From positions 1 to 64,000 of the forward strand of contig CAUYUJ010000111.1 of assembly GCA_963575745.1 (NCBI GenBank): a stretch of DNA of 64,000 nucleotides, written 5' to 3'. Made by a program: the position numbers and the translations under genes. Each line of letters begins with the position of its first letter. Positions within the stretch are counted from its first letter, which is position 1. The notes under the pieces are model-generated. The model made no database searches, was not told the DNA's origin, and saw only the letters and a program-made list of their open reading frames with translations. Below, in pieces: positions 5,220 to 64,000 of the stretch. The DNA is from Prorocentrum cordatum. Lineage: Eukaryota.

Positions 5220-5220
5220 C

Positions 5221-7098
5221 GAAGCAGTCCCTTTTTCGGCCAAGTGTAGGAGTTATATCACTCGGGTTCAGAGCATTCTCACTTATGGAAGTCAAGGTAT
5301 TAGTTGGGACAGGGACTCTTTGCATAGCCTGAATGTCTTTGAGGGAAATTGCCTTTACCAGATGACGTCACCCCAAAAGCCAGCCTCCGAAAGTTGGGTA
5401 GTTTGGAAGCCAGCTCGACTCAGAATTGCTAGACGGATGTTCTTTGAAGCCAAGTGCCAGAGCGCAGTACAGAGAGTCCTTTATTCCTTGTGGCAGCTTG
5501 GAGCGGACATAGCATCATATTTCGGAGCCAATGCCGATAGCGGATATCAGATTCCTGAGTCGGAGCTGAGCCCAGGGATGGTCGCGGTCTCTTCAGTTAC
5601 CAATGGGATGGTGGAGGTCTCTTCAGTTACCAATGGGATGGGTGCGGTCTCTTCAGTTACTAATGGGATGGGTGCGGTCTCTTCAGATACGAATGGGATG
5701 GGTGTGGTCTCTTCTGATATGCATGGGATGGTCTCTTCAGTTACCAATGGGATGGGTGCGGTCTCTTCAGTTACTAATGGGATGGGCGCGGTCTCTTCAG
5801 ATACGAATGGGATGGGCGTGGTCTCCTCAGATATGCATGGGATGGTCTCTTCTGCTATGCCCTCTGATAGGGCCTCTTCTTCTCGAGATATTGAAGTTCC
5901 CTGTGAGCGGGGGGGGCCTAGGGACCCCCCCAGGCCCCCCCCGAAGCGTCGGAGGGTGGCAGTTCCTGGACCTGGACAACAGACGGTGTTTCCTCGAGCG
6001 CATCGAGACGCACGTCGGCTTCTGATGTGTTGTACCCCGAGGTGGGAGGAGAAAAGGACACTTGAGTCAGAATGTTTGCGTTCCCAGTGGAAGTGGAAGG
6101 AGGCCTCGAAACTGACACGATTAGGCAGTGCTAAGGGGCAGGCGACGGGTGAACATCCTTGGTGTTTCATGTTCCAGACGATATTTCCCTCGTTTGTGAA
6201 TCTGGAGGATCGGTGGTGGAGGGCGTGCTCTTTCTCTTACTCTGACTTCGTTCAGTATTGCAGGCAGTTCCTGGAAGCTTGTACTTTGGGTTCTCTGTTT
6301 GACTTGTTTGTTGTCCGTGGAGGAACTGGAGGACGAGGAAACTACATAAAGGAGAGGGGGGAGGAGATGATGGCCCGTCCGTTGTCGGTGAAGGAGTCTG
6401 AGAAGCTGGCCCAGAGATTGGCCTCGAACAATGAACAGGAGCCGACTTGGGATCTGAGTGATGATGGGATCGGTCTGGAGCTGACGGGCGATTCGCTTCT
6501 TATCTGTAATTGGATCAACGGTCTCTGGAAGGTTGAAGGAGGAGAAGGAGGAGATGGGGCTTCTTATCGTAGGCGGGTTGCAAATATTATTTCTCTTTTG
6601 GAAGAATTGGAGGAGGAAGGAGTACGACCCCCCTCATGGGGCAATGACTTTATTCGACACATATATCGGGAGAGTAATACAGTAGCTGATGAACTTACCC
6701 ATCTAGCACGGGAAGGCCAGATATTCAGAGAGCTGTTCCACCACCATATCTTCCGTCCTGATGTTCAAGACAACTTTCGAGTTATCGGCCTCCGCGGATC
6801 CTTCGATGGCGGAGTGTGTGCCCAAGGTGTGGGCGTTGGTTGGTTTCTGCAGATTGGATATATCCCTCGCTTTCATGATCCGTACCCTGACCCTGACCAT
6901 AGAGATAAGAGAGCTCGTGTAGTCTCCCTCTTCCCCCAAGCCTCCTCTCCTTGTCCAATCATATGGGAAGTAGTAGGGCGTTGTGCACAGGCACTCCCCT
7001 CCCATAGCAGTATCACTGACGCTGAGCTTTCGGGTCTCGAGGGCCTCTTGCGGGCCGCAGCCCAGGTGGCCCAAGACCTCCAGCTGCAGAGAGACTAG
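5221..7098 (+). pseudogene. Truncated ORF2 C-terminus (post-RT region plus permuted RNase H)
   Basis: YITRVQSILTYGSQG aligns with YAQRVQSIVLYAAEG of family D. Also GDSLLICNWINGLW, HIYRESNTVADELT, GSFDGG and ITDAELSG. The track start at 5179 lies in flanking satellite. Confidence 0.85.
5575..5850 (+). repeat. In-frame 30 bp coding minisatellite (GMGAVSSVTN)n
   Basis: About 9 copies of GGGATGGGTGCGGTCTCTTCAGTTACYAAT; reading frame preserved. Confidence 0.9.
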
Positions 7099-7159
7099 GT
7101 AGGCACTTAACGGGCGCTGGGGCGCTCGGTGCCTGGTCAGCCTCCCCCCCCAAAAAAAA

Positions 7160-7593
7160 GAAAGGTTGACGGTTTACCGCCGGCGCCCAGTTTTGAAGTT
7201 CGTTTTTAGAAGTGAGATTTTTATTCCCTGTAGTAAGCTATGGCGCACCGGCTGGTAAATTTCCTATGGCTCTAGGTCCAGTATTACTATCAAAACACTT
7301 GGAGGAACCCACTGTATGAAAACCGAAAAATCGTATTTTTTTCGATTTTTTCGGCTCTCGCTTCAGAAGCTTCCTTCACGTGTTCGGAGGAGCGCTGTGT
7401 GAGAAGAGAGCTCTATGAGGTGCCCGGCGGTAACTTGGTTGACGGTTTACCGCCGGTTCCCAGTGCCTCGTAGAGCTCTTCGGCATCGATGAGCTAGAGG
7501 AATTCGGGCGCGGGGTGCAGCTACTTGGCCGACCCAGCCCCGACGGACGATGTGCGAACTTTGGGTCGGTTGGACTAACTTTCTGAGATATTT
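7160..7593. repeat. Satellite segment between retroelement A and the giant transposon
   Basis: Contains the stem-loop at ~7410-7477 and the GAATTCGGGCGCGGGGTG module also seen at 39505, 41095 and 50982. Confidence 0.8.
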
Positions 7594-17286: not shown

Positions 17287-17591
17287 CAGCTAGCAGTTAG
17301 GAATGCGACTTGATTATTGTGCGTATGCGTCCCCAGGCCCAGGCGGTTCCCATCCAACAGCCCCCCATCAATGCTTTAATTTCCAATTCCTCTCCCACTC
17401 CTTCTTCGCCGCCTTTTTTTTGCAGCAACGGCCTGGGCCTGGGCGACCAGCCTCGGGGGAGTCCGGAGACCCCGCCTCAGAAACTCAAAGGAGACCATTA
17501 TTCCCTCAGCATTACCCCGCAATGCAGCACACTGGCCAGCCCCAGGGTCACTTCTTCATTGGTTTCCCTCTCCCTCTTTCTCTCTCCCTCT

Positions 17592-17627
<36 letters not shown>

Positions 17628-43230: not shown

Positions 43231-43448
43231 TCCTCTCCTTGTCCAATCATATGGGAAGTAGTAGGGCGTTGTGCACAGGCACTCCCCTCCCATAGCAGTA
43301 TCACTGACGCTGAGCTTTCGGGTCTCGAGGGCCTCTTGCGGGCCGCAGCCCAGGTGGCCCAAGACCTCCAGCTGCAGAGAGACTAGGTAGGCACTTAACG
43401 GGCGCTGGGGCGCTCGGTGCCTGGTCAACCTCCCCCCCCAAAAAAAAA
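43231..43448 (+). mobile_element. Severely 5'-truncated (~220 bp) copy of retroelement family A
   Basis: Near-identical to 6943-7159, with a poly(A) tail. 24 bp TSD AACAAAGGTTGACGGTTTACCGCC at 43207-43230 and 43449-43472. GCC microhomology at the 5' junction. Confidence 0.92.
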
Positions 43449-44750
43449 AACAAAGGTTGACGGTTTACCGCCGGCGCCCAGTTGGCAAGACAAATCTCGA
43501 CGGAACTTTTGCTGACTTTTGGTCGGTTGAAAATTTTGTTCTCGAAATTCAACAATCGTTTGAGCTCTAGTACTTTTTCCCGTGATATTCGATCTTATCC
43601 CCGCTCGCCATCTTGATCTCAGCTCGATCGGGTGAATATGACTATCGAAAAGCACTGTGGCGGGATCGGCCGGTTTGAGTCATCTTGATACGCGCTGACG
43701 GGTTTCTGAACATAACTCGAGCTCTAGAACAGCTACAGAGCTGGTAAGCACGGCTAATCGATGTAGAATGATCAGGCGCGTTCGCCTGTTGAATCGAGAG
43801 GTCTGAACTCGGTCTGTTAGCCGAGCTAGGTCCTCAAACTTATTCGTATTATTCGAGTCCTCTTGACAGGAACTCTTGGTTTTCTGTACTCAACTCGAGC
43901 TGTAGGACAGCTACAGAGCTGATGACTCGTAGAGCTTCCCTGAGAGCGCAGCGGCGAAGCTTAAGAGTAATTCGAAAACGCTGGCAGGCTAGTTGGCTCG
44001 AAAAATCTCGACTGAACTTTTCACAACTTTGGCTCGGTTGAAAATTATGTTCTCGAAATTCAGCAACTCGTTTGAGCTCTTGTATTTTTTCCCGTGATAT
44101 TCGATCTTATTCCCGCTCGCCATCTTGATCTCAGCTCGATCGGGTGGGTATTACTATCGAAAAGCGTCATGGCGGGATCGGCCGTTTCGAGTCATCTTGA
44201 TACGCGCTGTCGATTTTATCAAGATAACTCGAGCTTCAGGACAGCTACAGAGCTGGTGAGCACAGCTAATCGATGCAGAATGATCAGGCGCGTTCGCTTG
44301 TTGAAACCAGAGGTCTGAACTCGGTCTGCTGGCCGAGCTAGGTCCGCAAACCTATTCGTATTATTCGAGTCATCTTGACATAAACTCTCGGTTTTCTGTT
44401 CTTAACTCGAGCTGCAGGACAGCTACGTAGCTGATACGTACAGAATCCGATTCCGAATCATCAGTGGCCGTTGTCTGTTGAATCCAGAGCTCTGAACTCG
44501 GTCTGCTGCCCCATCTAGAATCGCGAAACTATTCGTATTGTTTGAGTCGCTTGCGAGATGCTGTCGGTTCTCTGCACTTAACTCGGGCTGTAGGGGGGCT
44601 GCATGGCTGGTAATCACTGGAATCGATTCGGAGACATCAGGCGCGTTCGCCTGCGGAATCTAGAGCTCCGAACTCGGTCTGTTGCCCGAACTAGGTCCGC
44701 GAAGCTATTCGTATTGTTCGAGTCATCCTGAGAGGTGCTGTCGGTTTTCT
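43449..44750. repeat. Satellite block
   Basis: Head module plus ~177 bp monomers. Confidence 0.85.
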
Positions 44751-47026
44751 GGGGCAAGCATGAGAATGCTTGTGTGGGAGTTCTTGACGTTGAGTGCGCC
44801 TTCGACAACATCACGATACCGATGGCAGATAGAGCGATGCATGATATCAACGTTGACCCAGAGCTGGCGTATGCGATCCTGGAGCAGAATGCAGATGTAA
44901 CAGCGACGTTTCGATTTGGTCCAGTGGAGTCAGAGAGCTTACCGTGGAGCTCATGTATTAAAACGGGATCCCTTGAGGGCCCTGATATCTGGAATATTGT
45001 TACGATTGCTTGTCTGGGCAAGGTTCTCTTGGACTGGGAACGAAAAGGTATAGGCCTGAAGCTGTCACATGAGGCTGCTTCTATTGCTATCTCACACTTC
45101 ATTTGGGCGGATAACTTTGTTTTGATTGCTGACTCCAGACCAGCACTGAGGGAGATGATCTGGCAGCTCACTGTACCACTGCATGCATGGGGACTCAGAT
45201 GGAAGCCTACCTCGCTTGAGTATATGGATGTTGGGGCGCTGAAAAATGTGTTCGACCCGCTGGTGGTCACCTTGACACCACCAGGATTGGAGAGACTGGG
45301 AAGTTCCAGCTCAGTTGTGTCGCCATCTGAAGCTGTCAACCAGACCATTGTGGAACTCAAGCAGGTTGATGAGATCATCGTCTTGGGCACAAAGCTGAAT
45401 AGAACACTGGATGATTATCACGATATTCGATACAGACTGCAAAAAGGCATCACAGCATTTTGGCGAGACCGACGATATTATCAGAGTATGGTCATTCCTT
45501 GGCGACGTAAAATCAAAAGATATGATGCAAGAGTGAGAGTTCAAATCCTTTATGGAGTTGAGGGTTCATCTTCTGATATTGGCGTACTGAGACTTCTACA
45601 CAAAGAGGAGGGTAAGATGCTCTCTCGTATGTGCTGGCGTCAGAAGCGCAATGGAGAGAGTTTTGCGACTTTCATGACACGTATGTTTCGACGTGGGCGC
45701 TTGATGCTACACAAGGAAGGGAAACCGTCCTTGGTCCAGCTGTACCTGCACAGGCAGTTCATGTGGGCCAAGGACGTTGCCACGGAGTGCTTTGAGAATA
45801 TGGCAGGCTCGCTGCAGGACTTGTGTATCTCTGCAACGGGAGGGTCTCAGCTGATTGGGAAGAGCATGGAGGAGGAGATGATGGAGATGGAGGTGGAGGA
45901 GTCAAACACGAGGAAGAGGAAGAGTGCTCTCATCAGGGAGGTAAAACGAGCTCGTGAAGGGGAGTCCCTGAACACGTCCAGGTTGCAGGTTGGGGCCCAG
46001 GAGAAGCAGGTTCGTTTTCCAGGGAGAAAGCTCCGTTTTCGTGAAGGGGAGCATGTTGACCGAGGTGCTCAGAGTAGGCTTCTCATGCTGCATGCAGGTT
46101 TTGAATGGACTAATAGGCGGGATGACTTTATTGCGACCCTGGACACACAGAGCGCACGGGAGGTGACGAGAGCCAGGGGACAGTCTACTAATCTTCTGGG
46201 TATGTGTCCGTGGGCCAGAGTGTTCGAAGAGGTGGCGGGGAAGTACTGGATCGACGGTATTGCTTGGGATGAGGCTAGCTGGATATTCTTTGTGAGGACT
46301 GTCTTGAAGGACGCTCCTGAGATGTTGAACCTTTGCGTATTGAAAGACCCCGTGCCCTGGAAGGAATCGGAGGAGGAGGAGATGACTAAGAAGCAGGAGG
46401 ACCCAGATAAGTTGGCCAAGCGTCTCATTGCTATATTCCAGGACCATACTGAATTTGAGTTCGTGCCAGGGAAGATCTCTGTGGAACTGATGGGGGATTC
46501 GCAATGTGTGATCAGGTGGTTGGAGGGCTTGAGTAGTATCACTAATAGAAAGTATGCTAACTGTGTGATGTGGGCGCAGGACACTACAAACGACCTAGCC
46601 GACAGATGCGGACTACGAGCTGCCAATTTAGGACGGAATGTGTGGAAATGGGTATATAGGGAGGGTAATACTCGTGCCGATGAATTAACGTGGGCCGCGC
46701 GGAGAGGTGAATGTTTCGAACATTATGATACTTGTTTTCTTCAGGACGTGAAAGATTGTAAAGTTGTGATCTCGGGGATCAAAGGAGGCTTTGATGGTGG
46801 GAGATCGTGTCTTGGTGTAGGCTGTGGCTGGTATCTGGATTGTCATGTGTATAGTGCTCTCCCCTCCTCTTCTTACTATAATCTGACTGGCTGGCGCCAG
46901 AATGTAGGTCTCAAAAGCTTCCTCCTCCCAGCACAATGCACTATCACAGAGGCTGAGCTTGAAGCTGCCCGAGAGCTCCTTTTAGGAGTGGTGCATGTCC
47001 TGAGTTTGTCAGGATATCCCCTGTAG
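44750..47026 (+). pseudogene. Truncated ORF2: RT (C-terminal part) plus permuted RNase H
   Basis: LDVECAFD, IKTGSLEGP, FIWADN, VLG; GDSQCVIRW, YREGNTRADEL, GFDGG, TITEAELEAA. Confidence 0.88.
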
Positions 47027-50000: not shown

Positions 50001-51413
50001 ACTCGGTCTGCTGCCCGATCTAGAATCGCGAAACTTTTCGTATTGTTCGAGTCATCTTGAAAGTGCTCTCGGTTTTCTGCACTGAACTCGAGCTGGGGGG
50101 TGGCTACAGTGCTGGTGGTCACAGGGATCGATTTGAAGACATCAGGCGCGTCCGCCTGTCGAATCCAGAGCTCGGAAGTCGGTCTGCTGCCCGAACTAGG
50201 TCCGCGAAACTATTGTATTGTTCGAGTCATCCTGAGAGGTGCTTTCGGTTTTCTGCACTTAACTCGGGCTGTAGGGGGGCTGCAGGGCTGCTGGTGATCA
50301 CAGGAGTCGATTCGCAGGCATCAGACGCGTCCGCCTGTCGAATCCAGAGCTCGGAACTCGGTCTGCTGCCCGAACTAGGTCCGCGAAACTATTGGTTTTG
50401 TTAGAGTCATCTTGAGAGGTGCTGTCGATTTACGCACGTAACTCGGGCTGTAGGAGAGCTACAGAGCTCGCAAATAAGACAATCCAAAAGCATCGGGGGC
50501 GTTCGGCTGTTGCATTGAGAGGTCTGAAAACATTATATATTGTCAGGAAGCTCTACGAGTCCCCCGGCGGTAAGGAAGGTTGACGGTTTACCGCCGGCGC
50601 CCAGTTAGTCGACCCGGCCAGAAAAGAAGATGTGATAACTTTGGGTTGGTTTTGCGAATATTTGAAAGATATTTGACAATTCATTTTAAGAAAGCAGATT
50701 TCTACTCCGAGCATTAGTATCTTATCTTCATTCTGCGAGCAGCTCAGCTCTCTCGAGAGAATTTTATTATCCAAACATTTGGAGGAACCGACGTCACGTT
50801 GACGCCCACAAATAATGCAAATACGATGTTTTTCTAGAAATACTCTGAGAAGCGATCTGCTTTGAAGCTGAGCATTCTTACGCGTGCAAGGAGCTCTACG
50901 AGGTTCCCGGCGGTGGCCAGGTTGACGGTTCACCGCCGGCGCCAGTACCTCGTAAAGCTCTTCGCCATCGATGAGCTAGAGGAATTCCGGCGCGGGGTGG
51001 AGCTAGTTGGCCCACCCGGCCGAGGCGGACAATGTGACAACTTTTGGGTGGTTTTGCGAATATTTGAAAGATATTTGATAATCAATTTTGAGAAACCAGA
51101 TTTTTCGCACCTGTAGTGGGTTTTGCCGCGTCTGCCAGTAAAATTTTCAGGTCTGTAGGTGCAGTATTACTATCAAAAGACTTGGGGGAACCGACGTTCA
51201 GTAAAAGCAGAAAAACGTGTTTTTTTGAGTTTTTTCTTCCTCGCTCCAGAAGCTTTCTCTCCGTGTTCCGACGATCGCCGTGCAGGACTAGAGCTCTACG
51301 AGGTTCCCGGCGGTAGCCAGGTTGACGGGTACCGCCGGTTTCAGTTCCCCGCAGAAGCTCCGGCGAGCCGGACACGTGTCCGGGAGAGCTGCCGGCAGAG
51401 CTCTACGAGGTTC
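47086..51413. repeat. Satellite block (three to four higher-order units)
   Basis: Monomer anchors at 48728, 48906 and 49083 (spacing 178, 177); stem-loops at 48326, 49458, 50564, 50907 and 51307. Confidence 0.9.
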
Positions 51414-51434
51414 CCGTAGCCATTTTGGCTCAAG
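51414..51434 (+). other. Retroposed dinoflagellate spliced leader (DinoSL)
   Basis: CCGTAGCCATTTTGGCTCAAG matches the 21 invariant nt of DCCGUAGCCAUUUUGGCUCAAG and is not followed by GT. Confidence 0.95.
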
Positions 51435-51978
51435 AACGTCTCGGCTCAAGAACGTCTCTGCCTGGGGAACCTCCAGACGTTCTAGCGAGCCCTGGCCTCG
51501 GGGTGTGAGCCCGGCTTGCCTGGGTTCCCTCGAGGTTCTTGTCTGCTTACTCTACATCTCTTGTATTGTACGCTGTATTCTTCTTCGTGGTATTGAGATT
51601 CTCTGGTGTGCTGCACTGCTGTTCATTGTCTGTCTGCATTCTTTACCTCTTATTGAACGAGTGGTAGTTACTTGTGTGTGGATCGTTGTTGACATCACGT
51701 CGTACGACAGTCCTGAGGCTCAGCTGGCATTGAGGAGAGAGATAGGACTCGAGCATTGGGGTGAAAGTACTGAGGAGTGGTTTCGGCGTCAAAGGAATTT
51801 GGACATACCCACAGAAGACTACCAGGACGAGAGAGTCAACTTTGATTACCTTGAGGAATACCAGCCGTGGGATCAGAAAGATCTGCAGGCACTGGAGGCA
51901 GCATCAAACAAACGTCAACGTGAGGACGATAGGAGCTGGTTAGATAAATACGGATTGAACGGTAATATTCTTGAAGAT

Positions 51979-53082
51979 ATGACTCATGTTGCAGCAGCGG
52001 CGGATGCCGCGATGACTGGGGATGGTGAGACTCGATCCAAACGTGCACGTGGAACAGAGATTGAGGAGGAGAGGAAAGTGATGTTAGAAAAGGAGAAGGA
52101 TCCATTCAAACAGATGATGATGAAGCATGTTTGGAAAACGGAGGATGCCCATGAGGATCTCATCCATGTTGTTCAATCGACGAAGACGGACATCAAAAGA
52201 GTTGATGACACACTCAAGTTGCATACGGAGAGAATGGACAAATCAGATGCACGGACAGATATTTTGGAGAAACAGGTTAAGCAAATTTTGGCTGGATCTC
52301 CTGCAGCTTCGGTTTCGACTAGTGTGGGCCCTGGTGGCTCCTCTGGTGGTGGTGGAGGTTCGATCCCTCGCGTGCAACAGGAGCGATCGAGCCAGTTCAC
52401 ACCAACTTATCTCGAGCTGAAAGGGTGGGTTACGGATTGGTCGAATCAAGTAAATCGGGGAAATCAAATGATACCCTGGGCAGATGCGGCACAGTTAATA
52501 TCAAATATGATTGGGACACTTCAGGGGGAGGAAAGGAATGCTTACGATAAAGATAAAACTGAACGTTTAAACGGAGGAAGATATATGTACGGCAGTGTGA
52601 AGGTCGGTTTCAAAGAAGGGACACCACGGGACACTCTTTGGAGAATAAAGAAATGGATGGATATGGTCTGTAAGGAACCCGCCGACCGCATTGCCCCGCC
52701 CCCAGGTTATACGTATCCAGATGCCGATGTTCTCACTCATGATATGGACACGCCAATCGATCCCAGAAAGATTCGTACGTTAGTGGAGTGTGCACCCTGG
52801 AAGCGTGATCATGTGAAAGCGGTTGCTCGTTTCTGTGGGACTTGGCGTAGTATGACCTCGGCTCATGTTCAAATCGAGATCCGTGGGGAGGTGGGGCCAC
52901 CGAGAAGTCAGATTTGGACTCAAGCTGTTCCGAATTTCCGACCCGTCTGTTTTGCGACGTATACGAATACCACAGGGGCTTGGGTTCTTCATGCTGATGC
53001 ATGGGCTCGTATTGTTTCTTTTTATCCGGCGCTGAAGGTTCCCATGAATGATATACTTCAGGAAGTGAATCGTAGGCAGTGA
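51979..53082 (+). CDS. ORF1 of family D (coiled-coil plus conserved globular domain)
   Basis: First in-frame ATG at 51979; the frame is open further upstream. FTPTYLELKGWVTDW and VECAPWK are shared with ORF1 of family E. Confidence 0.8.
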   Translation: MTHVAAAADAAMTGDGETRSKRARGTEIEEERKVMLEKEKDPFKQMMMKHVWKTEDAHEDLIHVVQSTKTDIKRVDDTLKLHTERMDKSDARTDILEKQVKQILAGSPAASVSTSVGPGGSSGGGGGSIPRVQQERSSQFTPTYLELKGWVTDWSNQVNRGNQMIPWADAAQLISNMIGTLQGEERNAYDKDKTERLNGGRYMYGSVKVGFKEGTPRDTLWRIKKWMDMVCKEPADRIAPPPGYTYPDADVLTHDMDTPIDPRKIRTLVECAPWKRDHVKAVARFCGTWRSMTSAHVQIEIRGEVGPPRSQIWTQAVPNFRPVCFATYTNTTGAWVLHADAWARIVSFYPALKVPMNDILQEVNRRQ

Positions 53083-56000
53083 CGTTTGCGGCGCCTCGTC
53101 CGAGGCATACGCTTGGCGAGCTGGAACCTGAACAAAGCAGGGGAGGCTCATTTCAAATGTGCTGAGATTCTCCATCATATGAGGGCATGTGGTGGGCTCT
53201 TTGCATGTCAGGAAACTCAATACCTAGTGCACGGGGAATTTGAACGCTTGGGGTGGCGCATCAAAACTAGTTCGTGTAGTAAGGCAGCTCTCATCTTCGA
53301 CAGATCTTGGGCGGCTGCCGTCCGTATGTTTTTCACTTGTTTCACGAGGTTCGTTATCGGTGTCTTTGGGTCAGAGAAGTCACCACTCATTATTGTGTCA
53401 GCGTGTTTGCCAGACCCTCATGTGGAGGATTGTGTAGAGATTGCTGCGGAGGTATATGAGCAGATCGGTCGTGCTCGCAATGTTCTCCGCACTAAGTTTC
53501 CGCAGGCCAGCTTTTGTGTTCTGCTAGATGCAAACGTGGAGATTCCGCCTGGATGCAGATTTACGTATAATGGGGAGGAGTATGAGGCTACTGGAAAGGA
53601 AGGTACTCGTACGGACAGAAGGTGGGAGAGAGGAGGAGACGGTACACAGCAGATTGAAAGGAGGAGTCGGAGGAGGAGGCTGAAGGAGCTGCTGTTAGAG
53701 TTCATGGAATCGCATGGACTGAAGGCCGCCAACACTTTCTGTACTAGGAGGCATACCTGGGAGTCGTGGGGGGAGAACAAGTTTCTGACTTCGAAGAGGG
53801 TCCTGGATTACCTAATGGTCCCTCACCGTTGGGAGTTCTCGGATCTGGAGGTGAAGTGGTGTTTCAAGAGGGGTGGGAAGAAGCAGTTCAGTAGATTATC
53901 CGATCACGCAATCATCACGGCGAGTTTCACTGACCCTGGGAACGTGATTGTTCGTCGCCCTGACCCCCAGCCTGGTCAGAAGTCTAGGCCGTCTCTGGTC
54001 GGATACAAGTGTTCGACTTGGGCTGATGAGCATCAGGCTCGACAGCATGTGGATTCGTATCTAGGCGGTGCTGCCTTTTCAAGGTGTCCGTCTGTGACCT
54101 GTCCACAGGGTCTGGAGAGTACTATGCTGGAGGCGTACTTGTCACCGACGGTGGACTACTCCACCACGGGTGCGAGAAGACCGAGAGAGCCGTCCAGGCC
54201 GGTGCAGCTCACAAGAGCGGAGGAGGAGGTTAAGATGTGTCCGAAGGAGGAAGTGGAGAGGTTGAGGAGGTTAAAGAATGAGGCTAATCGTCTACGCAGA
54301 GGTTATCGACGTGATATGATTATGTGCAGATGTCCCCCAACAAAACGAAAGGTCAGATATACTATCAAACATTTAGTGGTGGATGGGAGGGAGACGGAGG
54401 ACCGTGAGGAGTGGAAGGAGGAGCTCGACAAGTTCGTTCGTTGCAAGGTGTCGTCCGAAGAGATACGCAATTCCACCAACAGTATGATGGAGGAGATCAG
54501 GATGAGGGCTGTACATGAGATACGTTCCACATCAGTTGTGGGAATTAGTATGGCGCTGCTTCTCAGAGCACGAGCTCGGCTGAAGACCCAGAGGGCTACT
54601 GGGCCAGACGGGATACCGTGCGAGATTCTAAGGAGCTTGCCGTGGTGTGCTCTCAGAGCGATCCAGAAGTTGTTCGATAAAATCATCAAGCTCACGATTC
54701 CGTATCCTCAGTCGTGGCGTGAGATTCTCGTCTCTTTTATGCCAAAAACTCCAGGGATCACTAAGTTAAAAGACGGACGTTTGCTGTGTATGCAGAATGC
54801 TGTTTCGAGATGGTTCAGTTCCTGTGTTGTTCTCTTGGTTGAGGGTCATATTGAAAGAAAAGGAGTGTTTCGTCATATTGGGTTGTATGGTTTCCAGGAA
54901 CACCGTCGTACACACGAAATCACGGCTAGCATCAAACACATAGGTCAACATGCTGCACAATGGGGAAAAGGGGAAACGGCACACTTGGCGAACGCTGATG
55001 TCCTTCAGGCGTTCGATCACTGCACGGTGGCCAATGTCAGGCGCGGGTTGGATCATGCGGATGTACCCCTTTACCTACAGTATGCTCTACTTGACCCCTT
55101 GTGCGAATGTGTAGGCACTGTCTATTATGATGGGATTGAGGTGGTGGAGGTTAGGTGGGACAAATGTATTCGGACGGGAGGGCCCGAGGGACCGTTGGCC
55201 TTCAATCTCATCGTTGCTGCTATGTGGGGCTCCACGATTCGAGAATGGGACGTACTAGGACTAGGTTATCGTATTGAGTATGTGACTGGCTCGACTAGCT
55301 GTGTTTCGATTATTAATCATTTCCTTTGGGCTGACAACTGTTATGTATTGGCTCGGAGTCGAGAGGAACTCACACGCATGTTACACGGTCTAACTACACA
55401 GTTACATGATTATGGAATGAGATGGAAGGAATCCAGCCTATTGTATATGGTGTTCGGGGTCGAGCCGCCGCGAGATGTGGAAGGGGAATTACTTCACACT
55501 GCTGATCTTGTTCTCTCGGTGGGGTCGGAGGCGTCTGGAGTGTATCGATTTAGAAGGACGACGGAGATGGAGGTGCTGGGGGCTTATATTTGTTCTGAAC
55601 TACATGTGAATGAACATCATGATTTGGACGCTCGTATTGACTGTGCTCGCAGGGCCTTCTGGGGGCAGGCGACCTTCTTCCGCTCCACGGCCATCCCGTT
55701 GAAAGATAAATATGAGAGGTATGCTCAGAGAGTTCAGAGTATTGTGCTCTACGCGGCGGAAGGATGCACGGTCGATTCAAGTTCATTGAGCGCCCTTCAT
55801 ATCTTTGAGGGCAAGTGCCTGTCTGTAATGTCTCGCTGTGTACGGAGGGAGGGGGAAAGTTACCAGGAATGGAATACGAGGAGGTATGAACGTGCGAGAC
55901 AGAAATTTCATGATGCTCACTTTGTGGGCATTGTACAGAAGTTTCTCAGAGTGCATTGGATGTGGGCAATTGACATCCAGGACTTTGCACGCAGGCTGAT

Positions 56001-57036
56001 CACAGATCGGGGGGAGTTGGAGGCGAACTCGATGAGAGCTTGGAGAGATTCTCGTTTCTCATTTCTGGCGTTTGGCCGACTGTGGGATAGAATGAGGACG
56101 GATTCAAGTGAGGCTCTCAGATGTTGGGGAAACTGGAAGGAGGCCAGCTCTATGAAAAGGCATCGGGGGGGACAAGAGAGCGTCGGACTCCGTCCGTGGT
56201 ATTATTCATTGGAATCGTTTTACGGTTTATCCTGGTGGGAGTTCTTTGCTGGAAGTTTTGAGCATTTCATGGATTTCGCTACTAATGTTTGTTCTAGTAC
56301 TATGTTGAAGTACTTCCAAAAGAAGTGTAAAGGTTTGGCGTCCTCAGGGGTGCCTGTATTCTTGAACTTGGATGAGGATGGAGGGGTTCATATCGGTCAG
56401 GATCGGGAGGATACACCAGCATATAGGGATCGCCTCAGCAAACGTATTGCGTTGCATAATATGCGTTGTACACAGTGGGACCTCGATACAGATGGGATAC
56501 CACTGGACATCCAAGGGGACTCACTGCTTGTTATTAACTGGCTCTGCGGGAAATGGAAAGTATTAGCTCAGGTATATCAGAAAAGGGTGGATACTCTGAT
56601 TAATAAGTTGGACGAAATGCAGGAAACTTACTTGGTGAGGCCTCCAGAGGCCGGCCGTGACTTCTTCTCTCATTCGTTTCGGGAATGGAACCAGAAAGCT
56701 GACTTACTGACCCATCAGGCCCGTCAGGGCCATGTGTACGCCGATTTCGTTTACCTCAACGACTTTGAATCTCAGTGTTATATTCCTTGCCTTATCAAAG
56801 CCGGCTTTGATGGGGGAGTTTGTAGCCGCGGAAGTGCCTGTGGTGCATGGATACAGATTGGTCTGCGAAACAAGTATATCTTCTCGCGGACCGACATCAT
56901 TTTCAAGGATGTGTATCTTGCGGCTTGGTGTCTACCACCGAGCGCCACTGTTGCAGATACGGAACTATCGGCGGCGGAGCGCATATGCGAGTTGCTCCCA
57001 CAGGTTGTGCAGACCTTCTTTGATCATTCGCAGTGA
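53083..57036 (+). CDS. ORF2 of family D: APE endonuclease, reverse transcriptase and permuted RNase H
   Basis: APE motifs SWNL, CQET, LDAN, NTF..HTW, LDY, SDH. RT motifs ATGPDGIP, ADVLQAFD, IRTGGPEGP, WADN, VLG. RNase H motifs at 56500-56990. Confidence 0.95.
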   Translation, partial: RLRRLVRGIRLASWNLNKAGEAHFKCAEILHHMRACGGLFACQETQYLVHGEFERLGWRIKTSSCSKAALIFDRSWAAAVRMFFTCFTRFVIGVFGSEKSPLIIVSACLPDPHVEDCVEIAAEVYEQIGRARNVLRTKFPQASFCVLLDANVEIPPGCRFTYNGEEYEATGKEGTRTDRRWERGGDGTQQIERRSRRRRLKELLLEFMESHGLKAANTFCTRRHTWESWGENKFLTSKRVLDYLMVPHRWEFSDLEVKWCFKRGGKKQFSRLSDHAIITASFTDPGNVIVRRPDPQPGQKSRPSLVGYKCSTWADEHQARQHVDSYLGGAAFSRCPSVTCPQGLESTMLEAYLSPTVDYSTTGARRPREPSRPVQLTRAEEEVKMCPKEEVERLRRLKNEANRLRRGYRRDMIMCRCPPTKRKVRYTIKHLVVDGRETEDREEWKEELDKFVRCKVSSEEIRNSTNSMMEEIRMRAVHEIRSTSVVGISMALLLRARARLKTQRATGPDGIPCEILRSLPWCALRAIQKLFDKIIKLTIPYPQSWREILVSFMPKTPGITKLKDGRLLCMQNAVSRWFSSCVVLLVEGHIERKGVFRHIGLYGFQEHRRTHEITASIKHIGQHAAQWGKGETAHLANADVLQAFDHCTVANVRRGLDHADVPLYLQYALLDPLCECVGTVYYDGIEVVEVRWDKCIRTGGPEGPLAFNLIVAAMWGSTIREWDVLGLGYRIEYVTGSTSCVSIINHFLWADNCYVLARSREELTRMLHGLTTQLHDYGMRWKESSLLYMVFGVEPPRDVEGELLHTADLVLSVGSEASGVYRFRRTTEMEVLGAYICSELHVNEHHDLDARIDCARRAFWGQATFFRSTAIPLKDKYERYAQRVQSIVLYAAEGCTVDSSSLSALHIFEGKCLSVMSRCVRREGESYQEWNTRRYERARQKFHDAHFVGIVQKFLRVHWMWAIDIQDFARRLITDRGELEANSMRAWRDSRFSFLAFGRLWDRMRTDSSEALRCWGNWKEASSMKRHRGGQESVGLRPWYYSLESFYGLSWWEFFAGSFEHFMDFATNVCSSTMLKYFQKKCKGLASSGVPVFLNLDEDGGVHIGQDREDTPAYRDRLSKRIALHNMRCTQWDLDTDGIPLDIQGDSLLVINWLCGKWKVLAQVYQKRVDTLINKLDEMQETYLVRPPEAGRDFFSHSFREWNQKADLLTHQARQGHVYADFVYLNDFESQCYIPCLIKAGFDGGVCSRGSACGAWIQIGLRNKYIFSRTDIIFKDVYLAAWCLPPSATVADTELSAAERICELLPQVVQTFFDHSQ

Positions 57037-57294
57037 TTTGACACACATTGTTTCTTCTTTTCCGTGTCTTGTATATTCCTGCAGCTTCGCTGCTCACTGA
57101 CTTCCTCGATTATCTGTGTGTTCTTTGCGTTTGATTGTGTCATTGCGGCATGTGATTCTCTTTATTCCTTCAGCTTCGCTGTGTGGTATAAGAGCTGACT
57201 GCTTGCGTGATGAATAAGAAGCTCTGTTTTGCCTGAGACTTTGTTGGACCTGGCCTCAGTGGCCAAGACGGTCCCAGCAAAGACGCAAAAAAAA

Positions 57295-58355
57295 GACCAG
57301 GTTAACGGTTCACCGCCGGCGCCAGTAACTCGTAGAGCGTTCCTTAGCAAGTTATTGCTGGAAGCTTAAGAGTAATTCTTGCGCGCTGGAGAGCTAGTTG
57401 GCAACGCAATTTCGACGGACCTTTTGGTGACTTTCCGTCGGTCGAAAATTTGGTTCTCGAAATTCAACAATTCGTTAGAGCTCTAGTATTTTTTCCCGTG
57501 ATATTCGATCTTATTTCCGCTCGCCATCTAGATCTCAGCTCGATCGGGTACCTTTTACTGCCAAAAAGCACTCCGGCGGGATCGCCCGTTTCGGGTCATC
57601 TTAATAGGCGCTGACGGTTTCCTCAAGATAACTCGAGCTTCAGAACAGCTACAGAGCTGGTAAGCACAGCTAATCGACGCAGAATGATCAGGCGCGTTCG
57701 CCTGTTGAACTCAGAGGTCTGAACTCGGTCTGCTAGCCGAGCTGGGTTCGCAAACCTATTCGTATTATTCAAGTCATCTTTGACAGACGCTCTCAGTTTT
57801 CAGTACTTAACTCGAGCGACAGGACAGCTACAGAGCTGATACGCACAGAATCTGATTCAGAATCATCAGTGGCCGTTGTCTGTTGAATTCAGAGCTCTGA
57901 ACTCGGTCTGCTGCCCGATCTAGAATCGCGAAACTATTGGTATTGTTCGAATCATCTTGAGAGATGCTGTCGCTTCTCTGTTCTTAACTCGGGCTGTGGG
58001 GGCTGCATGGCTGGTTATCATTGGAATCGATTGAATACATCAGGCGCGTCCGCCTTGCGAATCCAGAGCTCTGAATTCTGTCTGCTGCGAAGTAGCTCCG
58101 CGAAACTATTCGTATTGTTCGAGTCATCCTAAGAGGTGCTGTCGGTTTCCTGCACTCAACTGGGCTGTAGGGGGGCTGCAGGGCTGGTTATTACAGGATC
58201 AATTCAGAGGGATCAGACGGCCTGTCGCATGGAGAGGTCTGAACTCGGTCTCATACTCGAGCTAGGTTTGCCAAACTATTCATTTTTTTTCTGTGTATTT
58301 TTTTCGAGAATGTTGTCAGGAAGCTCTACGAGTCCCCGGCGGTAACAAAGGTTGA
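57295..58355. repeat. One satellite higher-order unit between elements D and E
   Basis: Head module, 4-5 monomers, then the left half of a stem-loop. Confidence 0.88.
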
Positions 58356-58869
58356 GGAAGCGGAGTTTACCTCCCGCTCTCCCTCGGTCTTGTCCCGTCG
58401 GGGGGCTCACTCGAGCTGCATCGTGTAGTCAGGCAGCCTGCCCCTGGCCCGCCGCGCGGGGGGCGCGTGGCGATCGGGCCACTTCGGCGACTTCGGCTGC
58501 CTGCACTTGTTTGCGGCATTTGTTTGCTTCCCGAGGCAAGCAGGCCGCCTGCACTTGTTTGCGGCATTTTGCCGCGTCGAGCTGGACGGGACGAGCCAGA
58601 GTCAATCGATCGATTTGGACCGCTGGGGAGCCAACTTCGGACATTGGGAGTGGGAGTATCTTGCCAGACAGGTTGGTAGAGCTCGACACGACGATAAGGA
58701 TTCTCTAGTCGACATACCATCTGGGCCACCTGATCTCTCTCCCACTTTACCTCACCATCCTGTTGCCCCATATAACTTTCATCAGTTGAGTGCACATCTC
58801 AAACGTACTCGAGAAGATCGATCGTTCTGTGCGAAGTGGAATATCCCTTGTAATATCTCAGACGGCAAG

Positions 58870-59916
58870 ATGGCTGCCTCATCAGCTGCTGCGGTCCCCG
58901 AGGTTTTCGCTATGGACGCCACTGATATGCCCGTTCCAGGAGCCAAGGAGGAGGAGGTCCCAGAGGGAAAACGGGTCAAAATTCAGACGGTTGAAGGCCT
59001 CGAGGAGGCCATGACAAAGGGGATGGACAAGATCACGACGCTTGTTGCATCTCTGGGAGGTAAGATGACGGAGGGCTTCCAATCAACACATCGAAGCATC
59101 ACGGATCTCGGCACCCAGCTCAATGCTCGTGTTGATTCGGTGGAGAAAAATGTACAGCAGGCGATGACGGACATAGATGCTATTACTAAGAAGGTTGAGG
59201 ATCAGAGGCTCCAGATAATCCAGCTCCAGCAGGCTCCTGCAGGTGGGGCCCCCAGAGCAGGCACCTCTACGACAGCGTCCTCGGCGGAAACTCGGCAGTC
59301 AGTGCAGAATTTCACCCCATCGTTCGTCGAGCTCAAGGGATGGGTGACGGACTGGAGGGATGCAGAGAAGCGTCAGGAGGAGATGTTATCACAGCAGGCG
59401 TTGAATTCACTGCTGAATGAGGTCCTGGCTGGAGAATGGTTCAGTGGTGTGAAGGAGTTTCTGGACCTGAACCAATCCAAGAGGTTCAACACAGGTAGAG
59501 AGGCGTGGGGGTATTCGCGTGCTCGGCTCTATTTCCAGAATGGGGTTACCAGTGACCAGCTGTGGGATCTTCGTCGTCGACTCGTTGCCGCGATCGCCGA
59601 CAACAAACTCCAGCACGCTCCCAGGGCCCTCAAGGTCCACGTGGAGGCCCCCCCCTGGAAGAAGCCCCATCTGGATGCCGCTGGGATCTTTCAGGCCAAG
59701 TTCAAGAGTTTCAAGAAGCATCATTCGAATCTCAGGGCTGAGACGGGACCACCGATTACGTTCATGTGGGGCTCCAGTGACCACTTACCACCTCCAGGGA
59801 AGATTGTGGCCAAGTTCTCTCTGCAGAATGGCTGGGAGATCACTCGTGCAATGAATCAGCTTGAGCCAGGGATCAACATTGATGAGTTGCGAGCGAGGAT
59901 TTCCAGTACGAACTAG
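58870..59916 (+). CDS. ORF1 of family E
   Basis: ATG at 58870; heptad-like region LNARVDSVEKNVQQAMTDIDAITKKVED; FTPSFVELKGWVTDW; VEAPPWK. Confidence 0.82.
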   Translation: MAASSAAAVPEVFAMDATDMPVPGAKEEEVPEGKRVKIQTVEGLEEAMTKGMDKITTLVASLGGKMTEGFQSTHRSITDLGTQLNARVDSVEKNVQQAMTDIDAITKKVEDQRLQIIQLQQAPAGGAPRAGTSTTASSAETRQSVQNFTPSFVELKGWVTDWRDAEKRQEEMLSQQALNSLLNEVLAGEWFSGVKEFLDLNQSKRFNTGREAWGYSRARLYFQNGVTSDQLWDLRRRLVAAIADNKLQHAPRALKVHVEAPPWKKPHLDAAGIFQAKFKSFKKHHSNLRAETGPPITFMWGSSDHLPPPGKIVAKFSLQNGWEITRAMNQLEPGINIDELRARISSTN

Positions 59917-62900
59917 AGGTGCCACGACACCATTGCGTCATGGAATGTGCGTCGGGCAGGTGCAGAGAACGGCCATGACATAATTAATTCACTACGTCGT
60001 TTAGATGTGGGACTCGCGGGGTTGTGCGAGTGTCAGTTCCTTTCAGTTCGTGATCTCAGCATGCGAGGTTACACAATTTTTCGGAGTACTTGTCGGAAGG
60101 CTGCGGTGATTATGTCTAAGTCTTGGAGAGACTCGCTCAGAGCCACATATCGTGGCAAAGGTTTTGTCATTTGTAGTTATTCTAGTGTTACGGTTATTGT
60201 TGCATATATGCCACATGAGAGTATCAATGCCCTTACGGAAGAACAGTATGAGCATGATGTGTATGAGCAGATATTGTTTGATATATCCCAAGTGCTTCGC
60301 ACACATAGGTCTAAGTTCCCGAAGCAGCCGCAGGACCTGGTCTTCTTGACAGATGCTAACGTCGAACTCGAGCCAGATTCGGAGGTCAACGGCTTTAGAG
60401 TTACTGGATCAGGGCTTCTGGAGGCGTCTGGGATTGCTGGGGAGTCTACGGAGATTGATACTGGGATGGAGGAGGGAGCGGATGACGGCAACCCGTATAT
60501 GACTCAAACAAAACGTGGTGCACGCAAAGCCAGACCTCATAGGCTTGTCTCGGGCTTCGAAATTCGACGGGCGTCTAGGTTGCAATCGATGAGGAGGGCC
60601 CTACTGGACTTCTGCGGGCTCTGGGGCATCAGGATGGAGAACACATTCGGGCAGAGGAGGGTTACTTTCAAATCAGGTACGGGGGTGGAGAAGGTGCTCG
60701 ACTATGTTGGTGTCAGCCGTCGTTTACACAGGCAGGAGCTCACCGTTGGCTGGATGCTGCCTTCGGAAGTCGGCCACGCCTGGACGGAGCACCCTTGCAG
60801 CAGATGCGAGCGTGCGCTGTCTGACCACGCCTGCATAGTTGTTCGCTTGTCTTGTGCACCGTCTGCGAAGAGACGGACCCAGCCTGCTCGAAAATTCATC
60901 CACTTGCAACCGGTGTCACAGCTGGAGTTTGCGAAGAACATGGACGATCGGGGCAGTCGTTGCCGTGCTCTGTGCCAGGAAAATGCTGACCCAGAGGATC
61001 GACAGGAGATGTTGGATACGCTGGGACCTGACCTCATAAAGGCCGCCGAGGAGACCCCCCAGAAAGATATCAATCCCAGGAATAATGTGCCAAAGAAATC
61101 CGAGATCCACTGGGCCGCCCAGGCAAGTAAACGTGAAGCTCTTCGTCGGGGGGATAGAGAGGAGGCTAAACGGTGCTCAAAGATTGTGAGGAGAGAAAGA
61201 AGGAGGCTAGAGGCAAGAGTACAGAGGTGGAGGACGGAAATGAACACGAGGAGGAGGAGGAGGGCCAAGACGGAGACGTTGATCCTTGCCAACGGGATGG
61301 AGTCTCAGAACCGCGAGGAGTGGGGGGACGAGATATTGGGGCACATGAAGTCTAAGGTGGAGGACCCCGAGGCCAGAGAGGTGACCCTGCGTGAGCTTCA
61401 GTCGCTGCGTGGTCTATGTTCGGGAAGCGGATCCTCAGAGGTGTTCTCGATGTCGCTCCTGCTGCGGGCGAGGGCGAAGCTGTCCACGGGAAAGGCCCCA
61501 GGTCCCGACAACGTGACTGTCACGATGTTGAAACAGCTCTCGTGGGCATCTGTGCGACGTGTTCTGGTGAGCTTCCAAGGTGTGTATTCCAGAAGGTTAT
61601 GTTGTCCCGACAGTTGGCGTCAACTAGCTGCCACACTCATGCCAAAAGAAATGGACATACAACATTTGACAGATACACGTATGCTATGTCTACAGTCGTG
61701 TCTTATGAAATGGTACATGACATGTATTGTGATGTTGATTGAGAAGAGGATTGAGGAGCACCGACACTATGTATGCCTGTACGGATTCAGATCGGGACGC
61801 AAAACATCGGAAATCACCAGCGTTGCCAAGAGGCTCAGCCAGCACTCCGCTGTCTGGGGCAAAGGAGACAGTTTGTGGCTTGCCAATCTTGATATCTTAC
61901 AAGCTTTCGATAATGTTACTCCGTGCCTCGCCATGCGCTGTCTTCGTGCTCTTGACATACCTGCTGATCTCATTGTGGCGTTGATTGAACCCATGATGGA
62001 TAATCAGTGCGTGGCCAGCTTCGAGGGCATCGAGGCATCGTCAGCGGTCTATTGGGACAAATCTATTCGAACGGGAGGAGTAGAGGGACCTATGATTTTT
62101 CTGGCAGTTTCTATTGTACTCTGGAGAGATGTTATCGACAGATGGAGGCAAGAAACGCAGTACGGCATCAAATTGGAAAATGATGAGCGCATGTTCAATG
62201 GTGAGCGTATGACCCACAGTTTCTGGGCAGATAATCTTTTGTTGTATGCGAAGACCCGCACTGACCTTGAGTTGATGGTGCGTGACATGAGTATCCCCCT
62301 GATGAATGCAGGAATGACCTGGAAGCCGAAATCTTTGATGTATATTTACTTTGGTGCGCCGCCTGGCATCCCGCCGTCCCCTGAGCAGGATATCCGTGTG
62401 CTGGTGCCGTCTAGTGACGCCGCTCTTGGGACCCGAGAAGTGGTCCTACCGCGTGTTCAAGCGTTTGAGATCCTGGGAGCCACTCTGGAGGAGACCTGGA
62501 AGGACCACTCGGACTCAGAGGCCATGCTCCAGAAAGCCCAGAGGATGTTCTTTGGGGAAATCGCGTATTACCGCTGTTCTGGGATTGGCTTGGCTGAAAG
62601 ATTTACTCGCTATCAAGCTAAAGTGATTGCTGCATTATTATTCAACTGTGAGGGCAGAACGCCCCAGGTATACGCAAGCGGAGAACTGAAGGCTGGTCTG
62701 AGTTTCAACGTAGGCGATACAAAGCGGGGCGACAGAGTTTTGCTGGACTTGGATTCCGAAGTGCGGTGCAGATATGGATATTTCGTTGTTGGGATTGGGC
62801 TAAGGATGTCTCAGTTGCTGCAAGTATTCGTATGAGGAGATACACAACACACACAGAGGAGGAGGAGGGAGAGACGGTACCAAATCGGCGTCAGAGGAAA

Positions 62901-64000
62901 ACTCGGGCGATGGCGGCGGCGGCGACTTCTCAAACATATCATGTATCTCAGATATCCCAGATGTCGAGTGGCTGTCGCCGGCGTACACCAGATGATCAGC
63001 CTGCCATACCTGAGGAGTCGGACATGTCACGTGAATGGATGATATCTAGGCTGGCCATGTTACATGGAAGGGGGAAGTGGACGGAACATCGTGACACATG
63101 TATTCTAGCAATGCCTGTAAAAGATAGGAAGCAGCTGACACGCATGAACATAGGCGGCCGCCCCCGTGGACATACTGCGTGGGACTGGTGCTTGTGCGAT
63201 CTCTTTGGTTGTGAGTGGTACCTCTCATTCGACAGTTCCGCTGGGTCCCGTGAGAAATACTGCAAGCATTTGCTGACTGTGATTGGTATGCAACACTTGT
63301 TCGACTTGTTTGTTCTACCCAGGCCGCCTGGTGTGAGACATGTGAAGGCAGAGGAGGAGGAGGAGAGTGAGATGAATGAGAGGATGAGCAAACGTATTGC
63401 CGCTAATTTTGAGAATGAAACGGAGTGGAGGTGTGAGAATATTGAGCGTCTTGGGATGGAGATCTTGGGAGATAGTAAGACTGTTGTAAACTGGATGTGT
63501 GGTGAGTGGCAGATTCGCAACAAGCAGTATGTACGACTGGTGGGAACACTACAAAATACGGTATCGATGCTGTCTGGATGGGGACTGACCTCACCTGCAT
63601 CGGGACAGAATCTGTATAAGCATTTCTTTCGTGAGGGTAATGAGCGTGCGGATAAATTGTCGTGGGAGGCCAGAGGTGGCCAAACTATTACTCGCTGGTT
63701 TGCATATGATAAGTTCCTCAGTACTCGTAAGACTGCTCTCCGTGGTGCATTCGATGGGGGTGTCAGTAATGAAGGATGTGGAGGTGGGTGGTGGCTTCAG
63801 ATTGGCGTTGTAGGTAGGGGTTCCAGCGTGCAGGTTGATTTTCCCATCTCCTCCTCCTCCTCCTCCTCCTCTTCCTCCTGCACCAGCTCGCACAGCTTCC
63901 ATTGGCACGATGTGGCCGAGGAGGCGATGAGCTTGCCTCCTGGTAGCACGGTAACCTGCTGTGAACTAGCTGCCTGCGCTGCCCTGACGAGAGCTGCTGC
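59917..64000 (+). pseudogene. ORF2 of family E (APE-RT-RNase H), broken by a deletion/frameshift near 62665
   Basis: SWNV, TDAN, LDY, SDH, KAPGPD, LDILQAFD, IRTGGVEGP, WADN. After 62668 homology continues in another frame (RKRRTEGWSEFQRRRY..GDSKTVVNW..FREGNERADKL..AFDGG..TVTCCELAA), open to the window end. Confidence 0.88.

Follow-up and report, generated by a model that had tools for sequence, protein, structure and literature searches.

The three-aspartate catalytic site is treated as a defining invariant of reverse transcriptases (RTs). In the human LINE-1 (L1) ORF2 protein (ORF2p), D600, D702, and D703 form the catalytic triad and F605 is the steric gate against ribonucleotides (PMC10830420). 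D702 and D703 are the metal-binding aspartates, and a second study mutated them together to provide an RT-dead control (PMC10830416). Here we describe long interspersed elements (LINEs) from Prorocentrum cordatum in which the last of these three aspartates is an asparagine. They lie in a 64,000-nucleotide stretch of contig CAUYUJ010000111.1 (positions 1 to 64,000), which we refer to as the window. The full-length element E3 (51339..57296, + strand) resembles L1 in several respects. The protein of its second open reading frame (ORF2) carries an N-terminal apurinic/apyrimidinic-type (APE) endonuclease followed by an RT with the same order of motifs. Among solved structures, human L1 ORF2p (PDB 8uw3, 8sxt, 8c8j, 9hdo) is the best sequence match, with a fold similarity of TMq 0.65–0.68, and L1 likewise ends in an A-rich 3′ tail, is subject to 5′ truncation, and is flanked by target-site duplications. 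However, where L1 has FADD (D702, D703), RQG, K603 at motif A position +3, and the RPI proline, the window element has WADN, RTG, Q, and R-L-L. In addition, L1 lacks an RNase H and does not insert site-specifically. In the window elements, ORF1 and ORF2 share one frame across a single stop codon.

Asparagine occurs naturally in place of the second motif C aspartate in some viral RNA-dependent RNA polymerases, as GDN in mononegaviruses and as ADN in birnavirus VP1. These enzymes are right-hand polymerases, but they copy RNA into RNA and have no family-level homology to LINE RTs. The site-specific LINE R2 (PDB 8gh6, 9dou) is a close match in RT fold (E 1e-16), yet its proteins have a C-terminal restriction-like endonuclease, zinc fingers, and a canonical motif C, and they lack both an APE and an RNase H domain. 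The same substitution, from the second aspartate of YXDD to asparagine, was engineered in the RT of the long terminal repeat element Ty1. The D211N enzyme polymerizes in vitro with a 223-fold lower kpol and prefers Mn2+ (PMC2148107). Thus, a D-D-N site can catalyze. Unlike this mutant, the LINE clade appears to hold asparagine as its natural, selected state. A natural and conserved DN is shared with the G2L5 group II intron-like RTs (Simon and Zimmerly 2008). Those proteins are bacterial, carry domain X and an N-terminal extension of ∼500 aa, and are described there as not known to be mobile, whereas the present clade consists of eukaryote-type LINEs with insertion hallmarks. Our search of the full-text literature, whose scope left out subscription journals and Repbase Reports, returned, among the papers listed, no report of WADN, FADN, YADN, YXDN, or xADN in eukaryotic retroelements. 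The conserved noncanonical catalytic triad stands within a LINE architecture and life cycle that are otherwise ordinary. On the evidence set out below, the WADN proteins are probably the ORF2 polymerases of autonomous, site-specific LINEs that make up a large and old clade, in which asparagine has been selected in place of the third carboxylate.

Motif C in the window and among its relatives

In E3, the codons tgg gct gac aac spell WADN at 55327–55338, in the frame of the 1316-codon ORF2 (53086..57036). We searched all six frames of the window for [WYF]ADN and obtained four matches, three of which fall at homologous RT positions: 45104–45115 in element E2, 55327–55338 in E3, and 62224–62235 in E4. 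The fourth, an FADN at 10477 that adjoins a stop codon, is a chance match. About 50 codons upstream of each WADN lies motif B, which reads IKTGSLEGP (44957–44983), IRTGGPEGP (55168–55194), and IRTGGVEGP (62065–62091), respectively. The scan thus bears out the motif C and motif B variants that a first-pass annotation of this DNA had read at these three sites. The same annotation described the ORF2 of its family D, our E3, as intact, and indeed no internal stop interrupts the 1316 codons. It also spoke of three divergent families. The three proteins are only 31–34% identical in pairwise comparison, with W748, A749, D750, and N751 invariant; however, all of them belong to one larger DN clade. No DD-type RT was detected across the 64-kb window.

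Single sequences gave little: Pfam returned a weak RVT_1 match below cut-off for ORF2 and nothing for the endonuclease region, and a PDB search with a single sequence found no match, so that a profile was needed. A profile of the three window RTs aligned ‘lWadn’ with LFADD, residues 699–703 of human L1 ORF2p (E 3e-11). In motif A, ‘ldvlqafd’ fell on IDAEKAFD (D600, F605), and in motif B, ‘cirtGgveGPl’ fell on GTRQGCPLSPL, with ‘rtG’ on RQG. By this alignment, N751 corresponds to L1 D703 and D750 to D702 (motif C, 55327..55338), the catalytic D638 corresponds to D600 and F643 to the steric gate F605 (motif A DVLQAFD, 54997..55017), and T697 occupies the L1 position of the Q in RQG (motif B IRTGGPEGP, 55168..55194). 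A larger profile of 14 sequences aligned its positions 11–696 with residues 29–707 of human L1 ORF2p (E 4.6e-27), and its N terminus matched the ExoIII-type nuclease 2jc5 (E 7.8e-4) as well as the L1 endonuclease part. Canonical LINE database rows with GVRQGDPLSP and FADD share hidden Markov model columns with the window RTs, and no xxDD motif elsewhere is conserved.

The predicted structure agrees with the alignment. The fingers, palm, and thumb of the E3 RT (54493..55965, ORF2 residues 470–960) were modeled by AlphaFold2 with a mean confidence (pLDDT) of 95.6 and a pTM of 0.91, and the model places WADN on the β-hairpin after motif B. In Foldseek, R2 and human L1 ORF2p ranked first (E 1e-16 to 1e-13, TMq 0.58–0.68), and group II intron RTs were weaker matches. 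Together, the profile and fold matches identify the elements as LINE-type, with the order APE endonuclease, RT, and RNase H-like domain. The endonuclease, the order of RT motifs, and the marks of target-primed insertion are all present, and F643 retains the aromatic steric gate. The catalytic site departs from the canonical three aspartates, since the second motif C aspartate is asparagine in all three window copies.

The substitution extends well beyond the window. A word-indexed protein search yielded only three relatives, and an exhaustive profile search was needed; this search, over 1.84 billion representatives, returned 6311 proteins at E ≤ 1e-3, 973 of them at E ≤ 1e-10. The counts that follow refer to the best 150 of the 6311, of which 130 cover motif C. 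Ninety of these 130 read xxDN, mostly WADN, a share that is not an unbiased frequency because DN sequences made up the query profile and the counts are limited to the best matches. The rest divide into 34 xxDD rows (21 WADD and 13 F/YADD) and 6 others. Only two of the 130 rows have a residue other than N or D at position 4 of motif C, one with S and one with E. The DN rows keep the motif A aspartate (88/89), the first motif C aspartate (96/96), and the steric-gate phenylalanine (86/89). By contrast, the TG that the first-pass annotation saw replacing QG in motif B, though present in all three window RTs, is a trait of a subclade: 59 DN rows have QG and 25 have TG, so that TG is not tied to the change from D to N.

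The DN state also clusters strongly by phylogeny. In a tree of 77 well-covered rows, built without the motif C columns by a quick IQ-TREE search under LG+G4, the state requires 5 changes, compared with a mean of 21.3 after shuffling (0 of 500 shuffles as low), and well-supported branches force 3 changes. The three window RTs belong to a clade of 10 rows that are all DN. Two DN clades have a WADD clade between them, with the canonical F/YADD rows on the outside. Given end branches of ∼0.3–1.4 substitutions per site, the DN state has persisted through deep divergence. Marine metagenomes account for most of the sequencing runs in which the element is present; the others are one metagenome run each from freshwater, estuary, and aquatic sources and some coded organism runs. 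Among 20 clusters looked up, the sole organism name came from a cluster ∼62% identical to the window RT, in which one 76-aa member (P0159) carries the EukProt label Pyramimonas sp. CCMP1952; that label could reflect contamination.

Signs of selection come from comparison at the DNA level. The one usable locus from a scan of metagenome DNA, contig L001, encodes an ORF2 that is 69% identical to that of the window and also has WADN. Over 847 codons, the ratio of nonsynonymous to synonymous substitution rates (dN/dS, Nei–Gojobori) is 0.11 overall. By region, it is lowest in the RT (0.04), followed by the endonuclease (0.08) and the linker (0.30). These values are rough, since they come from a single pair with dS near saturation (1.9 overall and 4.4 in the RT). 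In four DNA sequences, the motif codons read GCG/GCT/GCA/GCT for alanine, GAT/GAC/GAT/GAC for aspartate, and AAC/AAC/AAT/AAC for asparagine. Thus, all three codons vary synonymously. Judged from these comparisons, ORF2 is under strong purifying selection. In five DN families, ten further full-length ORF2s (1263–1455 aa) are 99.5–99.9% identical to their representative, and all of them read W/YADN.

The first-pass annotation had inferred a natural two-aspartate RT, with asparagine in the remaining position, and had suggested that homologues be surveyed and dN/dS computed across the RT. Both lines came out in its favor, with 90 of 130 rows reading xxDN and clustering on the tree and with an RT ratio of ∼0.04 for the one near-saturated pair. 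The alignment to D703, the intact members, and the insertion hallmarks described next lend it further support.

Insertion into a palindromic repeat and element organization

A tblastn search with the intact E3 protein located four related elements, E1 to E4, all on the + strand. Each ends in a short A-run followed by ...AAAGGTTGACGGTTTACCGCCGG, which corresponds to a palindrome's loop plus right arm. This palindrome, CCGGCGGTAA-loop-TTACCGCCGG, occurs 21 times in the window (20 on the + strand), compared with 0.3 expected by chance. It takes the form CCGGCGGTAA-(c/g)aaaggttgacgg-TTTACCGCCGG, is often extended by agctctacgag / ctcgtagagct, and is found for example at 1032, 7169, 43218, 43460, 47097, 51317–51338, and 57297–57319. 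All four LINEs have inserted into this target, with the nick just before AAAGG and duplications of 7 to ∼22 bp. A search of the whole window against Rfam gave no match, so the target is not a known RNA gene. At E3, the intact palindrome of the 5′ flank ends at 51338; at the other end, an 8-nt A-run (57287–57294) is followed at 57297–57319 by a repeat of the loop and right arm, with about 19 of 23 bases alike.

The freshest insertions belong to E1, the family A of the first-pass annotation. E1 (5220..7168, +) is 5′-truncated, begins after motif C, and runs to the 3′ end. Its A-run is accompanied by a duplication of 7 bp, gaaaggt, at this same nick. Its last ∼212 nt, ending at 7168, recur at 43231..43450 (+) with one mismatch and a different A-run length. 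This 5′-truncated copy of 220 nt is flanked by a 21-bp target-site duplication, aaaggttgacggtttaccgcc. The near-identical copies and duplications ascribed to family A were therefore rightly read, and the family has inserted very recently. Taken together, the A-runs, 5′ truncations, and duplications are signatures of target-primed reverse transcription from one fixed nick site. The spaces between palindromes are filled by arrays of a ∼177-bp monomer and a ∼450-bp segment (70–5115, 41283–44832, 47105–50480, and 57395–58200), and the palindrome-bounded units measure ∼1 kb. E3 starts beyond the last palindrome, and the monomer arrays are thus not part of the LINEs.

E3 is full-length in the tblastn map, with a 5′ untranslated region, ORF1, ORF2, and a 3′ untranslated region. 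Its ORF1 frame (51322..53082, +) opens inside the flanking palindrome, has its first methionine near codon 221, and ends in TGA at 53080–53082; no Pfam family was found in it. ORF2 (53086..57036, +) follows in the same frame and encodes the APE endonuclease (53086..53985, with motifs SWNLN, QET, DANVE, and SDHA), the RT, and the RNase H-like domain. E2 (44735..47026, +) is 5′-truncated and retains the RT from motif A onward and the RNase H-like domain. E4 (58507..63998, +) has an ORF1-like frame at 58507–59916 and an ORF2 at 59947–62835; its homology shifts frame near 62661–62676, and it runs off the window. In all three elements with a visible junction, ORF1 and ORF2 share a frame and are separated by a single stop: TGA-CGT at 53080–53085 in E3, TAG-AGG at 59914–59919 in E4, and TGA-CGA at 1415–1420 of L001. 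The endonuclease SWN lies 8–12 codons past that stop, with no intervening methionine. This layout suggests that the two products are fused by stop-codon read-through, or else that ORF2 is translated by non-AUG reinitiation.

The C-terminal domain (56467..57033) is RNase H-like in an unusual order, GDS, RExNxxAD, FDGG, AEL, and stop; the E3 reading frame ends right after the AEL helix. In a profile search of the PDB, the half with GDS and RExNxxAD matched RNase HI of archaea and bacteria over its C-terminal half (E 6e-5 to 3e-4). Other measures of this half are weak, with VIA Z scores of 3.7–4.1 at 21–26% identity and an RVT_3 match over positions 62–119 that is below cut-off; the VIA-align matches to RNase H are partial, and unrelated α/β folds score an equal or higher Z. 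The half with FDGG and AEL has β-β-β-α topology with an invariant D and E and resembles the N-terminal half of RNase HI. The domain's four acidic residues do not vary among 14 sequences, one of which is a WADD relative, and this order recurs at 46430–47023 in E2 and in more than 20 database relatives. We found no match to RNase H over the whole domain, as is expected if the domain is permuted, and the best that Foldseek returned for the C-terminal model were unrelated proteins without a meaningful match (E 2e-4, TM 0.2). The domain may be a circularly permuted, RNase H-like one with its halves swapped. A literature search found no report of a permuted RNase H in LINEs.

Proposed catalysis with two aspartates and competing explanations

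If the WADN RTs are active, the elements would move by ordinary target-primed reverse transcription. The endonuclease would nick a fixed position in the palindromic repeat, and the RT would copy the A-rich 3′ end of the RNA from that nick. Its metals would be held by D638 of motif A and D750 of motif C, and N751 would stand in for the carboxylate, either as a neutral oxygen ligand or through a hydrogen bond. We infer that polymerization is carried out by the WADN RT itself, through an active site adapted to asparagine. By analogy with Ty1 D211N, its metal use or fidelity may be altered, as the first-pass annotation suggested.

Differences close to the active site fit a remodeled site. Motif A position +3 is K or R in 29 of 34 DD rows, compared with 8 of 89 DN rows; at position −2, 22 of 34 DD rows have K or R, and DN rows mostly have S, T, or N. 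Of 32 DD rows, 29 keep the RPI proline, whereas among the 60 DN rows that cover this column proline falls outside the eight commonest residues. Profile column 105 is mostly S in DN rows and Q in DD rows. The corresponding sites in E3 are motif A (54991–55017) and motif 2 (about 54780). The D/N state can be set against motif A lysine/arginine, the RPI proline, and column 105 in 2 independent contrasts on well-supported branches and 4 overall, numbers that give no statistical power. The pattern is thus a clade-level correlation that does not permit a claim of coevolution, and compensation for the lost carboxylate is a candidate explanation only.

Several points count against a working WADN polymerase of autonomous LINEs. 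A DD-type helper LINE may lie outside the 64-kb window. In family A, which has the freshest insertions, motif C is absent from the window, and searches with the E1 protein recovered none; they returned no longer relative and a single 478-aa C-terminal fragment without motif C. The near-identical full-length members of the DN families may each represent one locus assembled from several samples. The evidence for selection comes from one pair with near-saturated dS, and the survey of relatives was weighted toward DN by its query and by its restriction to the best matches. Contigs from RNA libraries (polyA metatranscriptomes, 4 runs from 2 studies) cover 55378–57200, plus a few short pieces elsewhere, and so stop short of the WADN codon; these matches record presence in RNA libraries, not transcription of the RT. 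Precedent points in both directions. The Ty1 mutant polymerizes in vitro, but D211N abolishes transposition unless suppressors arise in the RNase H domain (PMC2148107), and the G2L5 report reads the conserved change from DD to DN in RT domain 5 as loss of polymerase activity (PMC2602772).

These precedents favor the view that the WADN RTs are dead and are spread in trans by a DD-type LINE elsewhere in the genome: Ty1 D211N was unable to transpose (PMC2148107), the authors of the G2L5 study took the DN change as loss of activity (PMC2602772), and WADD relatives exist in the same broad family, making up 21 of the 34 DD rows. We nevertheless consider it quite improbable. A dN/dS of ∼0.04–0.11 is unexpected for a dead RT, even as a rough value. 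The DN rows have kept both remaining aspartates and the steric-gate phenylalanine almost without exception, and motif C position 4 is confined to N or D in all but 2 of 130 rows. The DN state has persisted over branches of ∼1 substitution per site, and the 64-kb window holds no DD-type RT.

The third carboxylate might instead have been relocated, so that another acidic residue of the DN clade reaches the metal site. An E or D in the motif B loop (GGxE/D) of 80 of 92 DN rows offers a candidate, and the clade differs at several positions near the active site. However, 16 of 34 DD rows carry an acid in this loop as well, so it is not DN-specific. Across 400 profile columns, motif C position 4 alone shows a difference above 0.45 in acidic frequency when DN rows are compared with DD rows, which makes relocation quite unlikely.

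Strong purifying selection on ORF2 would also suit domesticated host genes, or a role other than polymerization of the kind proposed for G2L5 (PMC2602772). Yet this account does not predict that 64 kb would contain four copies, one of them frameshifted, that show 5′ truncation, A-runs, and target-site duplications; nor does it predict ORF1 and an endonuclease or the many diverged families, and we rate it as very unlikely. Misalignment, with WADN not being motif C and a true YxDD lying elsewhere, could explain the weak RVT_1 scores of single sequences but is next to negligible, given that canonical LINE rows and human L1 ORF2p align FADD to the WADN columns, that WADN sits on the β-hairpin after motif B in the pLDDT 95.6 model, and that no other xxDD is conserved.

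Active D-D-N polymerases of mobile LINEs thus remain our preferred reading. A more far-reaching version of it is conceivable, although we hold it to be rather doubtful: an ancient mobile LINE clade may have rebuilt its RT around D-D-N, without the lysine or arginine at motif A positions +3 and −2 and without the RPI proline, and combined it with a permuted RNase H and an ORF1–ORF2 read-through fusion. If so, its metal use would be unlike that of every characterized RT, for example through a preference for Mn2+ or weaker binding of the catalytic metal, and speed, fidelity, or sensitivity to nucleotide analogues would differ. By analogy, the Ty1 D211N suppressors in the RNase H domain hint at a link between the odd RNase H and the odd active site.

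Other window features and significance

The window has a GC-rich (∼60%) middle. There, an ORF at 19527–20759 (+) has a partial match to a C-5 cytosine DNA methylase (PF00145, E 1e-8, profile positions 62–138). Patches of GGCCCCAAGAG-like units with an 11-bp periodicity occur within 15572–23000 and 26388–27125, in the GC-rich region. A tandem array of ∼21 copies of a 77-bp unit occupies 30959–32791 and is overlapped by three long ORFs on the − strand (530–615 aa). These three gave no Pfam match and are probably frames generated by the repeat.

The LINEs of the window bear on how RTs are recognized and how they work. As a clade with a naturally conserved D-D-N site, the DN LINEs would offer a natural system for studying what the third carboxylate contributes to catalytic-metal binding, pyrophosphate release, and translocation. 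They also urge caution on annotators, since copies with DN in motif C should not automatically be called dead. More broadly, the DN LINEs may supply RTs with unusual metal or fidelity properties.

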